From NCBI GenBank assembly GCA_963704725.1, contig OY969934.1:640001-704000 (forward strand): a stretch of 64,000 nt of DNA. Direction: 5' to 3'. Within the stretch, counting starts at the first letter, position 1. The number at the start of each line of letters is the position of its first letter. The position numbers and the translations under genes are program-made. Shown here piece by piece: positions 25,025 through 60,318 of this stretch. Below the pieces are notes generated by a model that saw only the letters and a list, made by a program, of their open reading frames with translations, had not been told where the DNA came from and did no database searches. This DNA is from an uncultured Actinomycetes bacterium. GTDB lineage: Bacteria > Actinomycetota > UBA4738 > HRBIN12.

Positions 25025-25100
25025 TGGTGGCCAGGGGCAGAATCGAACTGCCGACACCGCGGTTTTCAGCCGCGTGCTCTGCCATCTGAGCTACCTGGCC
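25025..25100 (-). tRNA. tRNA-Phe(GAA)
   Basis: GGCCAGG acceptor stem, anticodon loop CT-GAA-AA, GTTCGA T-loop, encoded CCA. Confidence 0.95.
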
Positions 25101-25148
25101 CTGCGTCGAACGCCGGCCCGAAATGGCGGCCGGCGTCTCGTCGCATCG

Positions 25149-25223
25149 CGCGGCTGACGGGCTTCGATCCCGCGATCTTCGCCTTGACAGGGCGATGAGG
25201 ACTCCGGACTCCTCCACAGCCGC
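25149..25223 (-). tRNA. tRNA-Asp(GTC)
   Basis: GCGGCTG/CAGCCGC acceptor stem, TCGCC-CT-GTC-AA-GGCGA anticodon arm; T-loop reads ATCGAAG. Confidence 0.9.
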
Positions 25224-25238
25224 GTATTCGGTTGTCGG

Positions 25239-25311
25239 TGCCCCCAACGGGATTCGAACCCGTGTCGCCGCCTTGAAAGGGCGAAATCCTAGGCCACTAG
25301 ACGATGGGGGC
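25239..25311 (-). tRNA. tRNA-Glu(TTC)
   Basis: GCCCCCA acceptor stem, CT-TTC-AA anticodon loop, GGTTCGAATCC. Confidence 0.95.
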
Positions 25312-25472
25312 CCGGGCGCCGGGGACAGCCGACGCAGTATAGCCTCCCGCCTCGGGCCCTCCCATCGGGGAGCCCGGAGCCGCCGACGCGGGCCGCTCGA
25401 GGCCGATCGGTCCCCGGCTACGAGGTCCTCCGGCCCTGCGTGCAGGCATCGGGCCGCCCGAACCTAACGGGC

Positions 25473-26021
25473 GTGAGGCGTCTCCTGCTCGTCACCGCGC
25501 TCCTCGCCCTCGCCGGCTCGGCCTGCGCCGAGGCCGCGAGCCCGGGCGGTCCCGCCGCGAGCGGTGGGACGCCGGCCCCGTGGGCCGAGCGCGATCCCGT
25601 CGTCTACTCCGTCGTCGTGGCCGAGGTGCTCGACGACCTGGGGGCGGCCCCGGGGGTGGTGTTCGTGGTCGACGGCGTGTGCCCACAGGCGGGCCAGGTG
25701 GACCCGGGAGAGCTCTCGTGTAGCGGTTCGATCCCGTCCGACGGCAAGGCGGCCCTGCAGGCCCAGCTCGAGCGGTACGCCCGGGTCGAGTTCGTCGACA
25801 CGGCCGAGGCCGCCCTGGGCGACGACGGCGCGGTGCGGGAGGACGGGGTGCTGTTCTGGCTGGGGCCGCTCAAGGACCGCAAGAACGGCGAGGTGCGCGT
25901 GGGCGCGAACTACGCTCGCCGGCTCTCGGGCGAATCCCTCGGCGTGAACCTGGCGATGACGGACCAGGGCGGATCCTGGATCGTCACCGGCGCCGCCGGG
26001 CTCGGCGGGTGCCCGGCCTGA
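25473..26021 (+). CDS. hypothetical lipoprotein
   Basis: signal peptide 'RRLLLVTALLALAGSAC' with lipobox. Confidence 0.65.
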   Translation: MRRLLLVTALLALAGSACAEAASPGGPAASGGTPAPWAERDPVVYSVVVAEVLDDLGAAPGVVFVVDGVCPQAGQVDPGELSCSGSIPSDGKAALQAQLERYARVEFVDTAEAALGDDGAVREDGVLFWLGPLKDRKNGEVRVGANYARRLSGESLGVNLAMTDQGGSWIVTGAAGLGGCPA

Positions 26022-26344
26022 GCCGGGACGAGCTCGTCACCCACCCGCAGATCCACGTCCATCGAGCACTCGAGCACGTGCTGCGCCCGGCGCATCGGCG
26101 ACAGGAGTCGCCTCGGTGCCACGGTCCGCAGGTCCACCACCCGGAGCGATCCGTCGAGCCGCGCCACCACGATCGGGAACCGCATCCCGAACGTGTGGAC
26201 CGAGGTGGCGCCGGGGAACAGGAGCGCCTCGTCGGCCGCGAGACGGTCCGCCCCACGCAGGCCGGCGGAGCGTTCGCGCCATCGCAGGGCCACCCGGCAT
26301 CGCAGCCTCGCCCCGCGGGGGCCGGTCAACACCACGTGCCTCAC
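25910..26344 (-). CDS. DUF192 domain protein
   Basis: 'RSAGL', 'SVHTFGMRFPI', 'HVLE'. Confidence 0.75.
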   Translation of the reverse strand: MRHVVLTGPRGARLRCRVALRWRERSAGLRGADRLAADEALLFPGATSVHTFGMRFPIVVARLDGSLRVVDLRTVAPRRLLSPMRRAQHVLECSMDVDLRVGDELVPAQAGHPPSPAAPVTIQDPPWSVIARFTPRDSPESRRA

Positions 26345-26397
26345 GCCGGCGACCCTAGCGTGACCCGCCGACAGCCCAAGGCCGACACGTCACACAG

Positions 26398-26472
26398 TGG
26401 GCCGGGCAGGATTCGAACCCGCGACACGAGGGTTAAAAGCCCCCTGCTCTGACCTGGCTGAGCTACCGGCCC
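26398..26472 (-). tRNA. tRNA-Lys(TTT)
   Basis: GGGCCGG acceptor stem, CT-TTT-AA anticodon loop, GGTTCGAATCC. Confidence 0.95.
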
Positions 26473-57634: not shown

Positions 57635-58173
57635 CCGTCCCCGTCCTGCGGGGGCGCGAGGTCGTCCTCCGTCCCGTCGAGGATGCCGATCACCCCGTCA
57701 TCCTCGAGTGGCAGAACGACCCCGAGGTGTGGTGGTGGATGGACTACGAGCGGACCTTCACGCTCGAGGACGTCCACGCGAGCGAGGCGCTCGCGAAGGT
57801 GGAGGGACACCCGTTCCTGATCGAGGCGCCGGACGGCCGTCCCATCGGACGTATCGGGTTGAACCAGTTCAGCGAGCGCGACGAGACCTGCTCGCTGTAC
57901 GTCTTCGTCGGCGACGCCCGGTACCGGGACACCGGCTTCGGCCAGGACGCCATCCTCACGCTGCTCCGCTGGGGCTTCGACACCTTCGGGCTGCACCTCG
58001 TGCAGCTGTGGGGGTTGTCGACGAACACGCGCGCGATGCGCGCGTACGAGCACGTCGGGTTCGCCGTCGACGGAACGCTTCGGGAGCGCTCGTTCAAGAG
58101 CGACGGGGAGCGGTACGACCGCACGATCTTGAGCATCACGCGACGCGAGTTCGACGCGTTGCACCGCGCATAG
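57631..58173 (+). CDS. GNAT N-acetyltransferase (RimJ/RimL family)
   Basis: 'LRPV', 'IGRIGL', 'NTRAMRAYEHVGF..DG.LR'. Confidence 0.85.
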   Translation: MTVPVLRGREVVLRPVEDADHPVILEWQNDPEVWWWMDYERTFTLEDVHASEALAKVEGHPFLIEAPDGRPIGRIGLNQFSERDETCSLYVFVGDARYRDTGFGQDAILTLLRWGFDTFGLHLVQLWGLSTNTRAMRAYEHVGFAVDGTLRERSFKSDGERYDRTILSITRREFDALHRA

Positions 58174-58298
58174 GCTCGCCGAACGCGTTGCGGCGCAACG
58201 GTGTACGGACTGCCGACGTCATGCGTTCATGTTCTTGTCACTCTTTCCACCGTGCCCGCTACCAGCGCATATGGCGTCTGACCTGGGGGTTCTTCGAG

Positions 58299-58328
58299 TT
58301 GACCCCCGTACCGGGGCGACGTTAGATT
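58299..58328 (+). promoter_or_regulatory. housekeeping sigma70-type promoter
   Basis: TTGACC-N18-TAGATT; predicted TSS near 58335. Confidence 0.7.
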
Positions 58329-58334
58329 CGCGTC

Positions 58335-58534
58335 GCTCCGAGCAGTCGGAGCGGCCGAGTCAGGGAACCGAAGTCGGGACCCCTGGGAAAGCCGTAAGGC
58401 CAACTGGGCGCACCTGCTCGTATGGTTGGGAAGGCCAACTAGCTGTGCGGGTGGGGAGGCTCGGGCGGCCCCAAAGCCCAACGAAAGGGTCTACGGCCAG
58501 GAAACCGAGACGGCTGTGAGAGGTTGCTCGGGGC
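58335..58534 (+). ncRNA. rod-shaped ncRNA, 6S/Ms1-like architecture
   Basis: nested end-to-end helices traced by hand, central bubble, about 200 nt, promoter and terminator, no credible ORF. Confidence 0.65.
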
Positions 58535-58538
58535 ACCT

Positions 58539-58607
58539 GAGCCCGAGGGGCCGACGGTGGTTGGAGGCTTCGGCTTCCGACGAGCCGGAGGTCCCTCGGG
58601 TTCTTTT
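58539..58607 (+). terminator. intrinsic terminator of the ncRNA
   Basis: GAGCCCGAGGGGCC pairs with GGTCCCTCGGGTTC, capped by a C(TTCG)G tetraloop stem, followed by TTTT. Confidence 0.75.
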
Positions 58608-58703
58608 CTGCGACCCTCGTTCTCTCCGGCCGGCGTCCTCTCCTTCCCCTCGCGCCGGGCCCGTCTTGTTCGCCTTCGTCCACGCGGGTAGCGTTGCGCG
58701 GAC

Positions 58704-59342
58704 ATGGCATCCGAGCGCGAGAGCGACGCCCGCGGCCGGCGCGACCAGATCGTCGAGGTGGCCATGCGTCACTTCGCCGAGCACGGCTACCGAGGAGCGC
58801 GCGTCGAGGACATCGCGGCCGAGGTCGGGGTGGCCAAGGGAACGGTGTTCCTGCACTTCGGCAACAAGGAGGGGCTGTTCCTCGCGGCCTTCGAACGCGC
58901 GGTGCGCGAGCTCCCCGCCTGGCTCGACGTCCCCGAGGAGGTCAAGGAGCAGGGCTTCTGGGCCGTGCTCGAGCACTGGCTCGTGCGCACGGAGCAGTTC
59001 TTCGCCGAGGTCTGGGTGCAGAACCGGGTGGCCATGATCGGGCGCTACGACACGGGGCTCGGCATGCGCCGGCCGATCGACCGGTTCATGCGCAGCGAGG
59101 ATCCGTACGGGACCCTGGAGTTCGTCGAGTTCGGCGTCCGGCGCGGCGAGATCCGCGACGACGTCGACAGCGACATGATCGCGTCGATGCTGGACTGGCT
59201 GGCCGAGCGGTTCCAGGACGCGCTGGCGAGCGAGGAGCTTGATCCCGGCCTCGTGCATCGCAAGCCCTTCCTCCCGGAGCGTCGCGCGAACCGGATCCGC
59301 GAGTTCCTGGAGCTCGTGCGCACGGGGCTCGCCGCGCGCTGA
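58704..59342 (+). CDS. TetR/AcrR family transcriptional regulator
   Basis: 'IAAEVGVAKGTVFLHFGNKEGLF'. Confidence 0.9.
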   Translation: MASERESDARGRRDQIVEVAMRHFAEHGYRGARVEDIAAEVGVAKGTVFLHFGNKEGLFLAAFERAVRELPAWLDVPEEVKEQGFWAVLEHWLVRTEQFFAEVWVQNRVAMIGRYDTGLGMRRPIDRFMRSEDPYGTLEFVEFGVRRGEIRDDVDSDMIASMLDWLAERFQDALASEELDPGLVHRKPFLPERRANRIREFLELVRTGLAAR

Positions 59343-59397
59343 GGCGGGCCTCCGGGCCTCGGCTGGGTGCTGGGTCCGGGCTGGTAGCGTGCCCGCC

Positions 59398-60318
59398 GTG
59401 AACGGTCCCCTGCTTCGCGGACCCGTCCTGCGGCTCACGCGGGCGGGATGGTTCAAAAGGCTCGCGACCGGCCGGGCGGGGTGGCTGGTCGCGTCGAGGT
59501 TCGTGGCGGGCGACACGCTCGACGCCGCGATCACCACGGCCGGTGTGCTCGAGCGCCGCCAGTGCGCGACGATCCTCGACCACCTCGGCGAGAACGTGAC
59601 GGCGCCCGAGCACGCCGCCGAGGCGGTCGCCGCGTACGTCCGGGCGCTCGACCGGATCGAGGACGAGCCCGGCCTCGATCTCACGATCTCGGTCAAGCTC
59701 ACGCAGCTCGGGCTCGACTTCTCGACGGACCTGGCGGTGGCCAACCTCGAACGCGTGGTGGACGCCGGCCGCGACCGTGTCGTCATGATCGACATGGAGT
59801 CGAGCGCCTACGCCGACCGCACGCTCGAGGTGTTCCGGGCGCTCCGGGCCCGGACCGACCGGGTCGGGGTCTGCCTGCAGGCGTGCCTGCACCGCACGCC
59901 GCGCGACGTCGAGGACCTGCCGCTCGCGTCCACCGTTCGGCTCGTCAAGGGCGCCTATCTCGAGCCCCCCGAGGTGGCGATCGAGGATCGGCGGGAGGTC
60001 GACCGCGCCTTCGCCCGCCTGGCCGCCACCATCCTGTCGCGGGGCCACACCCTGCACGTCGCCACGCACGACCCGGACCTGCTCGAGGGGACCCGGGCGT
60101 ACGTCGAACGGACCGGCACGTCGTGGAAGCGGGTGGACTTCCAGTTCCTCCTCGGCGTGCGTCGCGACCTCCAGGCGCGCTACGCGGACGAGGGGTATCC
60201 GGTCACGATCTACGTCCCCTACGGGACGGAGTGGTACCCCTACCTCACTCGACGGTTGGCCGAGCGCCCTGCCAACATGTGGTTCTTCCTGTCGAACCTG
60301 GCGCGGGTTCGGCGATGA
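59398..60318 (+). CDS. monofunctional proline dehydrogenase
   Basis: 'RFVAG', 'SVKLTQLG', 'IDME', 'RLVKGAY', 'ATHD', 'YLTRRLAERP'. Confidence 0.9.
   Translation: MNGPLLRGPVLRLTRAGWFKRLATGRAGWLVASRFVAGDTLDAAITTAGVLERRQCATILDHLGENVTAPEHAAEAVAAYVRALDRIEDEPGLDLTISVKLTQLGLDFSTDLAVANLERVVDAGRDRVVMIDMESSAYADRTLEVFRALRARTDRVGVCLQACLHRTPRDVEDLPLASTVRLVKGAYLEPPEVAIEDRREVDRAFARLAATILSRGHTLHVATHDPDLLEGTRAYVERTGTSWKRVDFQFLLGVRRDLQARYADEGYPVTIYVPYGTEWYPYLTRRLAERPANMWFFLSNLARVRR

Follow-up and report, generated by a model that had tools for sequence, protein, structure and literature searches.

Ms1 (PMC9130861) and CoRP (PMC11077062) are precedents in the phylum Actinomycetota for abundant, lineage-specific RNAs that bind RNA polymerase. 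As described in PMC9130861, Ms1 is highly abundant, approximately 300 nt long and folded as a rod with an additional 3' hairpin, and the Rfam model built for it reaches only close kin of mycobacteria. CoRP is a Corynebacterium RNA of 516 nt that is encoded between tRNA genes and cleaved into two fragments, and PMC11077062 reports no similarity of this RNA to 6S or Ms1 and places it in a group where neither was detected. Here, we describe a structured RNA encoded in a 64,000-nucleotide stretch of DNA from an uncultured Actinomycetes bacterium (contig OY969934.1, positions 640,001 to 704,000; Actinomycetota; UBA4738; HRBIN12), the whole of which is referred to as the window. A first-pass annotation of this DNA, made from the sequence without database searches, had proposed a decoy RNA resembling 6S or Ms1, and had explained it as either a divergent 6S or a new class of RNA polymerase-binding RNA. 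Positions 58335-58606 (+ strand) are a stand-alone gene for a structured RNA of approximately 272 nt, with its own promoter and a 3' hairpin followed by a U-tract, which we call the small RNA (sRNA).

A stand-alone gene for a structured RNA

The RNA of the + strand (58330-58607) folds to -159.1 kcal/mol, compared to -126.3 +/- 5.2 for shuffled sequences (z = -6.32, with 0 of 200 shuffles as good), whereas the - strand has a z of -0.97 and is equalled by 38 of 200 shuffles. This difference agrees with the proposal that the many G-U pairs of the region indicate structure on the + strand transcript. The minimum-energy fold of the single sequence is a multi-hairpin form, not a rod, in which a local 5' hairpin replaces the closing helix P1. 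This fold was rejected in favor of the rod, as P1 is compensated where the local 5' hairpin breaks (L017 and family f18, the latter from another class).

Covariation in relatives, which the first-pass annotation had named as a check on its proposal, was found in an alignment of 28 near-full-length homologs, from which an unpublished sequence (L003) and a truncated one (L035) were excluded. The RNAalifold consensus of these sequences is an unbranched 200-nt rod followed by the 3' hairpin, with 89 pairs in total, and its rod helices (58335-47/58522-34, 58351-56/58512-17, 58374-82/58487-96, 58404-09/58459-64 and 58413-29/58439-55) are nearly identical to the nested helices originally drawn, including the 13-bp closing helix. 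With 96.9% of the cells paired, changes on both sides were observed in 40 of the 89 pairs, compared to 17.9 +/- 2.6 after shuffling of columns (0 of 500 shuffles reach 40), a count that is not to be read as a probability given that the aligned sequences are kin. Slid controls, which preserve this relatedness and in which the partners were moved by 1-3 columns, gave at most 18 pairs that change on both sides. Long reading frames overlap the region on both strands, and coding potential was therefore considered; it was ruled out by the compensatory changes together with 1- and 4-base indels in the alignment.

The gene is transcribed from a conserved sigma-70-type promoter at 58299-58328 (+), composed of a -35 box TTGACC (58299-58304), an 18-nt spacer and a -10 box TAGATT (58323-58328). 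The promoter is present as first annotated, and is the only promoter-like site in 58000-58900, where 50 shuffles give 0.0 +/- 0.1 sites; boxes of the form TTGAC and TAnnnT are retained in the homologs. At the other end, the UUCG-capped hairpin and U-tract of the original description are also present and covarying, as a 3' hairpin at 58539-58603 (+) with its UUCG loop near 58569-72 and a U-tract at 58604-07, together forming the terminator. Its three helices comprise 27 pairs, of which 10 change on both sides; the hairpin is retained in the variant form of the RNA described below, and is the best-conserved domain of the family. A simple terminator scan of the region found no terminators, and this hairpin was not listed by it.

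Between these ends, the rod can be followed from its closing helix to its apical loop. P1 (58335-58347/58522-58534, +) consists of 13 pairs, six of which change on both sides, with 98.9% of the cells paired, and it is retained in the variant form as well as in other classes. Above it, the 5' side of the lower rod (58351-58373, +) begins with helix P2 (58351-56/58512-17), where both-side changes were observed in 5/5 pairs, and continues into the purine-rich stretch GAGUCAGGGAACCGA, which is at least 90% invariant across the 28 sequences and is retained in other classes. The opposing strand (58497-58517, +), which includes the 3' strand of P2, reads AGGAAACCGAGAC and is a near-copy of the 5' side. 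The two lower-rod strands (58357-73 and 58497-511) are therefore near-identical, purine-rich and placed face to face; they would form 2-bp helices with purine loops between them, and as their columns are invariant, this pairing is neither supported nor refuted by the alignment. The helix below the center (58374-58382/58487-58496, +) shows both-side changes in 4/8 pairs, including columns 54/177, which are GC in 16 sequences and CG in 10.

The upper arm (58404-58464, +) is composed of the helix 58404-09/58459-64 and an apical hairpin (58413-29/58439-55) of 17 pairs, nine of which change on both sides, capped by a 9-nt loop at 58430-58438, GAAGGCCAA, that is retained across classes. Both strands of the central region (58383-58403 and 58465-58486, +) are invariant in 28/28 sequences of the class, and in the other families aligned the CCCAAAG core of the 3' strand is invariant and the remainder nearly so. 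The 5' strand holds a GNRA-hairpin module, GCC-GUAA-GGC, at 58391-58400. This mini-hairpin had been proposed as part of a central bubble, and as the conserved pairing of the class it was rejected: its 3' arm, 58398-58401, pairs with 58467-58470 instead, with three independent compensations (L005/L006, L008/L009 and the L007 group), although a real and longer local hairpin is found in family f18. The bubble itself stands as a partly unpaired center, but its open part is smaller than the 21/22 nt first suggested, because 58398-58401 and 58467-58470 pair. Across classes, the most constant parts of the RNA are P1, the lower rod, the GUAA hairpin loop, the apical loop, part of the 3' junction strand and the base of the 3' hairpin.

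Transcript evidence, also named as a check in the first-pass annotation, was obtained from RNA libraries of soil, groundwater and sediment. In 14 RNA runs from nine studies, 28-41% of the sampled words of a 451-nt query were present, and in 4/4 runs mapped (four studies), contigs covered the RNA on 58317-58604 (5874, 200, 2544 and 12012 contigs), with the reservation that such contigs cannot show strand, level or absence and that an RNA library can contain DNA. All of the contig pieces listed fall in 58352-58604, with a single-contig depth of up to 3710; the contigs were selected for holding the RNA stretch, and their depths cannot rank it against other genes. No depth was observed over the flanks, nor over 58552-58598 in runs X1 and X5, from which neither a processed 3' end nor silent flanks can be concluded, because contigs cannot show absence. 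At 58334/5, the sequence of 53 contigs from run X1 switches to its own reverse complement, a pattern expected either from snap-back complementary DNA, with a palindromic hairpin at the 5' terminus as primer, or from a flip made at that palindrome during assembly; a single contig of run X2 continues past 58604 as a poly(A) run. These contig-based, rather than mapped, ends hint that the transcript runs from approximately 58335 to approximately 58605. The 5' end predicted near 58335 is matched by a loose end at 58334/5, which is a hint of its position and not a mapped end.

The conserved DNA coincides with this unit. A DNA search of 41 related genomes found a match in 36 of them at 73-94% identity, extending from near the -10 box to the U-tract, so that the conserved block is the predicted transcript; in relatives, conservation begins at about 58320-58329 and ends at about 58606. 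The genome of the window holds one copy. In the whole class, which in our collection comprises a single order with eight families and for which the tallies include some genomes flagged as unpublished, 265 of 294 genomes match, as do 105 of the 109 with a completeness of at least 90% and a contamination of at most 5%. A 20-nt word from 58465-58486 occurs in 117 stretches among 185,579 species genomes, and among the 80 of these that were listed, 71 are metagenome-assembled genomes labelled as Actinomycetota, Actinobacteria or Actinomycetes bacterium. Matches of this word in four Verrucomicrobiota records and one Omnitrophota record were rejected as chance (in L051, the Verrucomicrobiota match that was read, the word lies before a start codon in unrelated sequence), and an Rfam scan of eight loci with odd labels returned nothing relevant.

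Covariance models were built from the 3' hairpin domain (R1 and R2) and from the rod (R3). R2 matched 25 of 151 genomes sampled evenly from the phylum, namely 10/11 of the class, 9/10 of family f18, 1/1 of f11, 2/10 of f14 (weakly), one of f52 and two doubtful ones. With the rod model, the RNAs of f14 proved to be homologous over their full length (L180 at 32.2 bits, E 6e-7; L197 at 20.3 bits), and the sole support for f52 is one unpublished genome. The R2 match in G337 (E 0.0028) was discarded as a plain terminator hairpin, and that in G338 (E 0.0066), an unpublished genome, is doubtful. Homologs of the sRNA are present in at least three further families of the phylum (f18, f11 and f14). The RNA is inherited vertically, is separately transcribed and regulated, and is under strong selection on both its sequence and its pairing.

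Two observations on copy number were made in the course of these searches. In one genus, the three genomes sampled (G020, with L036 on C117 and L011 on C98, G147 and G148) each contain two copies of the sRNA, the second with a different neighborhood and a divergent 3' hairpin. The paired matches in G024 (L017 and L035) look like a single locus split at contig ends.

Relation to 6S RNA, Ms1 and CoRP

At the gathering score, Rfam 15 matched only four tRNA genes in the whole window, clustered at 25028-26472 on the - strand, and at E values up to 10 in 58150-58720 it returned only chance-level matches, the best at 18.7 bits against a cut-off of 46. The search that the first-pass annotation had called for thus matched no family, 6S and Ms1 included. 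The genome of the window has its SRP RNA, RNase P RNA and tmRNA at other places, and the sRNA is therefore not one of these housekeeping RNAs. The 6S model (RF00013) had no match in the window at the gathering score, and raising the E limit to 10 yielded none in 58150-58720 or genome-wide, in a search whose control matches 7/14 known genomes; the Ms1 model (RF02566) likewise had no match in this genome at E up to 10. In the literature, at the level of listings and the starts of abstracts, no description of such an RNA was found.

Compared to 6S RNA (SsrS, RF00013), the likeness of the sRNA is one of kind. Both are abundant stand-alone RNAs with an irregular rod of approximately 200 nt, closed by pairing of the ends, and with a conserved, partly unpaired center. 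The ssrS and ygfA genes are co-transcribed. A co-directional protein gene often follows the sRNA as well, an arrangement reminiscent of the ssrS to ygfA adjacency described in PMC9130861. In contrast to 6S, the sRNA has an extra conserved 3' hairpin of 65 nt, bringing the whole to approximately 272 nt, and its center is a junction with a GNRA hairpin that is dispensable in many genera; moreover, no covariance-model similarity was found in either direction, and the two RNAs coexist.

This coexistence decides whether the sRNA could be a true 6S ortholog, that is, the lineage's own highly diverged ssrS product. On the same 151 phylum genomes, the Rfam 6S model gave 56 matches, 44 of them over the cut-off, with 0/10 in the sampled relatives of the class and 0/10 in f18. 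Together with the rod-like shape and partly unpaired center, the lack of any detected 6S in the window's genome, or in the 96 genomes of its family (f1), would fit an ortholog. Mutual exclusion of 6S and the sRNA was apparent at first, but it fails: G313 (f14) holds a 6S match of 47.9 bits, over the cut-off, in addition to its sRNA homolog, as does G381 (f14) at 43.9 bits, just below the cut-off, and G296 (f11) at 36 bits.

Within the class, none of 123 genomes at least 90% complete has a 6S over the cut-off (46.4), and nine, three of them unpublished, have matches of 25-36 bits whose alignments show the 6S consensus blocks around the bubble. By family, these 6S-like matches are found in 4/9 genomes of f8, 3/5 of f6 and 2/9 of f7, and in 0/96 of f1. 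The genomes with a 6S-like RNA also carry the sRNA, on other contigs, and six published genomes of sister families (G039, G266, G268, G272, G280 and G049) hold both as separate RNAs. A search at the DNA level showed the candidate of G039 to be conserved in G028 and G040, in two unpublished genomes and in 0/24 f1 genomes, so that G028 and G040 hold both by DNA match. L199 (G039), L200 (G266) and L201 (G272) are examples of such divergent 6S-like RNAs with 6S consensus blocks, which score 27-36 bits, short of the cut-off, and occur in families f5-f8. The rod model, for its part, found nothing significant at either the 6S places (at best 4.5 bits, E 4.1) or the Ms1 places. An orthologous 6S is therefore an extremely improbable account of the sRNA, and the proposal of a divergent 6S is not upheld: the sRNA does not represent the 6S of this lineage. 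The class ancestor had both RNAs, and family f1 seems to have since lost 6S, or to hold one changed beyond detection.

Ms1 is also actinobacterial and of similar size, with a rod and 3' hairpin as outlined in PMC9130861. Its model gave four matches in the 151 phylum genomes, all in one family, with 0/10 in the class and 0/10 in f18, and a comparison of two Ms1 loci revealed no motif shared with the sRNA. Unlike Ms1, the sRNA has no separate 5' hairpin outside the rod in its consensus, where P1 starts at the first bases and a local 5' hairpin exists only as an alternative fold. Its neighbors are mshA, an acetyltransferase, TetR and proline dehydrogenase (ProDH), in contrast to the HAD-IB hydrolase and the oxidoreductase or Fic-type gene beside Ms1; it also belongs to a different lineage, and 6S can be present alongside it. 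The first-pass annotation had recognized neither the sequence nor the genomic context of Ms1 at this locus, and both statements hold, as RF02566 does not match and the neighbors are not of the HAD-IB/oxidoreductase type. From sequence comparison, no kinship to Ms1 is detectable.

With CoRP, as described in PMC11077062, the sRNA shares the features of a lineage-restricted, abundant, structured actinobacterial RNA that is dissimilar to 6S and Ms1. It differs from that description in its length of approximately 272 nt, in its lineage, and in having no adjoining tRNA genes, the nearest in the window being those at 25028-26472. We rate the sRNA as a new family, nearest in kind to the abundant protein-binding housekeeping sRNAs.

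The locus and its neighboring genes

The sRNA gene lies in a 530-bp gap between the stop of a GNAT acetyltransferase gene at 58173 (Acetyltransf_3, E 7e-18) and the start of a TetR gene at 58704, coordinates that agree with the gap as first annotated. Further upstream lies mshA (TIGR03449, 465.1 bits against a cut-off of 462.5), and downstream, each optional, are genes for TetR, proline dehydrogenase (ProDh, 267 bits) and P5C reductase, giving a recurrent order in the class of mshA - (GNAT) - RNA - (TetR) - (ProDH) - proC. In f18, an acetyltransferase gene lies upstream in 5/6 loci and ProDH downstream in two.

Such a setting raises the possibility of a cis leader, in which the structured RNA and its terminator would control read-through into TetR, proline dehydrogenase or proC. 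Among 43 loci, the first well-framed downstream frame is co-directional in 35, often within tens of bases, while three have a convergent frame (L031, L040 and L175), four have none that passes the filter and one is too short. Proline dehydrogenase directly follows the RNA in six class loci and in L178 (f18), and the promoter scan detected no second promoter before the TetR gene. However, the convergent frames and the varied identity of the downstream genes (TetR, ProDH, proC and others) mean that the RNA is not tied to one downstream gene, and that in three lineages it is not a 5' leader. In addition, the local 5' hairpin that competes with P1 is lost where P1 is compensated (L017 and f18), and the number of interior hairpins ranges from one to ten, which is not what a ligand pocket would show. 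Control in cis is thus very unlikely.

Conservation extends through approximately 100 bp of DNA before the promoter, of which about 60 bp at 58232-58288 are kept across the class and partly in another class. A conserved box, TTCTTGTCACTCTTT, at 58232-58246 (+), approximately 100 bp 5' of the RNA start, has the same spacing in most of 40 oriented upstream regions and may be a regulator site. It is followed by two direct repeats of ACC(A/T)GCG type at 58259-58273 and 58278-58288 (+), approximately 20 bp apart and adjoining the -35 box. The second repeat is GACCTG in 31/40 upstream regions and GACCAG in five, with no such word in the remaining four, and a similar word is found upstream of the RNA in loci of other classes. 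Judged by sequence alone, these repeats are possibly the binding site of a response-regulator-type activator that binds direct repeats.

Two additional features of the locus were noted. A perfect 6-bp hairpin at 58186-58200, just 3' of the acetyltransferase stop, is retained in relatives and is probably the terminator of the acetyltransferase gene; it is also the source of a weak chance match to SECIS_4 in Rfam. A 434-codon open frame at 58491-59795 (-), antisense to the TetR gene, reaches into the sRNA. It matches relatives only where it mirrors the TetR gene and looks like a spurious frame of a GC-rich genome.

The variable center and candidate partners

For approximately 120 of the 265 matching genomes of the class, all in genera of family f1, only the 3' end of about 85 nt was matched (E 1e-4 to 1e-30). 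We infer that all of these genomes carry a variant form of the RNA. Six variant RNAs were read (L041, L043, L044, L045, L165 and L167), and in these the promoter, P1, lower rod and 3' hairpin are kept, with the center swapped for 250-450 nt that form a multi-branch junction on top of P1 (z = -8.5 and -6.8 for the fold). The junction of these six RNAs contains 4-10 like hairpins, compared to exactly one such module, 58391-58400, in the core form. Each consists of a purine-rich flank, a 3-5-bp G/C stem (longer in a few), a GCAA or GCGA loop and a second purine-rich flank. Seven sequences of family f18 show a four-way junction as the center, containing a local GUAA hairpin of 5+2 bp, and the variant interior also occurs in this family (L196). 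The module was considered as a dispersed genomic repeat and rejected as such, since a search of three genomes with a degenerate pattern, allowing one mismatch, recovered only the RNA's own copy and two near-matches. In L179 and L181 (f18), the same purine-flanked GCAA module is inserted at the tip of the 3' hairpin, and the module therefore moves, or arises repeatedly, within the RNA family.

The reading we prefer, tentatively and at a strength slightly short of probable, is that the sRNA is a trans-acting, protein-binding RNA (a decoy, sponge or scaffold), rather than a base-pairing regulator or a leader. A constant chassis, formed by P1, the 3' hairpin and a lower rod in which two purine-rich strands mirror each other, would provide stability and a docking platform, and the variable center would display GNRA-hairpin modules with purine flanks, one in the window's genome and 4-10 in many sister genera. 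This is argued because the conserved structure far exceeds the needs of a seed-pairing sRNA, because no downstream gene is fixed, because the sRNA has features typical of docking surfaces, namely GNRA hairpins and a stiff rod with mirrored purine loops, and because the copy number of the module varies between lineages, as do the binding sites of sponge RNAs. Such variation in the number of sites between lineages is a known feature of sponge RNAs. Sponge RNAs of the CsrB/RsmZ type likewise present a short hairpin module in lineage-varying copy number on an abundant, terminator-ended sRNA, although theirs carries a GGA loop where the sRNA has a GNRA tetraloop on a short, purine-flanked GC stem, and the core form has only one module.

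If the invariant single strands were instead used for pairing, the sRNA would be a base-pairing regulator, whose C-rich stretches, in the 3' junction strand and apical loop, would recognize the purine-rich ribosome-binding sites of target mRNAs. This is how sRNAs with C-rich loops, 6C among them, act. The gene's own promoter and terminator, its contigs in RNA libraries, and the CCCC and GCCC runs of its invariant unpaired stretches would all suit such a role. It is nevertheless improbable, as a covarying rod of approximately 60 pairs with a conserved 3' hairpin exceeds what seed pairing needs, and the putative seed region is replaced in the variant form.

The same invariant strands could alternatively belong to an RNA-only machine, with its own tertiary fold and self-assembling or catalytic, in which the junction strands, apical loop and GNRA loops make RNA-RNA contacts. 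Such behavior is reported for large RNAs of the ROOL, GOLLD and OLE types. It draws on the junction strands being invariant in 28/28 sequences, with parts of them and the apical loop kept across classes, on the self-complementary GGCC within the 9-nt apical loop, on the multi-helix junction of f18, and on the multiplication of GNRA hairpins in the variants, with fold z values of -6.3 to -8.5. However, no receptor motif was identified, many genera have exchanged the entire fold-bearing center but kept the plain closing stem and 3' hairpin, and 272 nt is small compared to the known cage-forming RNAs. We regard an RNA-only machine as distinctly unlikely, if less so than a base-pairing regulator.

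With regard to the partner of a protein-binding sRNA, an RNA-binding protein that reads the hairpin module is a candidate only, possible though on the unlikely side. RNA polymerase, bound in the manner of Ms1 or CoRP and not of 6S, would by analogy be the leading named candidate, and this too we hold to be unlikely, to a slightly greater degree; it is favored by the size and shape of the RNA, the Ms1 and CoRP precedents, and the apparent loss of 6S in the family. A simple mimic of an open promoter is disfavored by the multi-helix junction of f18, by the replacement of the center with GNRA hairpins, and by conservation being highest in the closing stem, lower rod and 3' hairpin.

Several points weigh against the protein-binding reading and its named partner. 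No partner gene is linked to the locus, and the core form has the module's 3' arm engaged in a long-range pairing, meaning that the local hairpin may not form in the window's genome. Short GC-stem GNRA hairpins could also be structural filler or RNA-RNA docking elements. CsrA, Hfq and ProQ, on which sponge systems usually rely as global RNA-binding proteins, are not known to be common in Actinomycetota and may be absent, and no search for them was made here. For RNA polymerase in particular, the sRNA coexists with 6S or 6S-like RNAs in several lineages, its center is not a plain bubble, as the f18 junction illustrates, and that center is replaced in many genera.

A further suggestion, of low likelihood and much on a par with that for RNA polymerase as partner, is that the sRNA is an additional ancient class of RNA polymerase-binding RNA, which would have arisen in deep-branching Actinomycetota alongside 6S and outlived it in the window's family (0/96), and which may represent the ancestral kind of Ms1-type core binders. 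In that case, the constant lower rod and 3' hairpin would hold on to RNA polymerase, with the variable center adjusting which of its forms is bound.

Near-universal structured noncoding RNAs are few in bacteria, and each serves a core process. The sRNA is retained by nearly all genomes of an uncultured class with a wide distribution in soil, occurs also in other deep-branching Actinomycetota, and it lies outside the curated families. As a defined molecule of 272 nt with a structure backed by covariation, it can be synthesized in vitro and serve as bait, offering a direct route to an RNA-protein or RNA-only system in organisms that have not yet been grown. The sRNA is of further interest for the question of which RNAs take the place of 6S in actinobacterial transcription, as family f1 has apparently lost 6S and keeps the sRNA.

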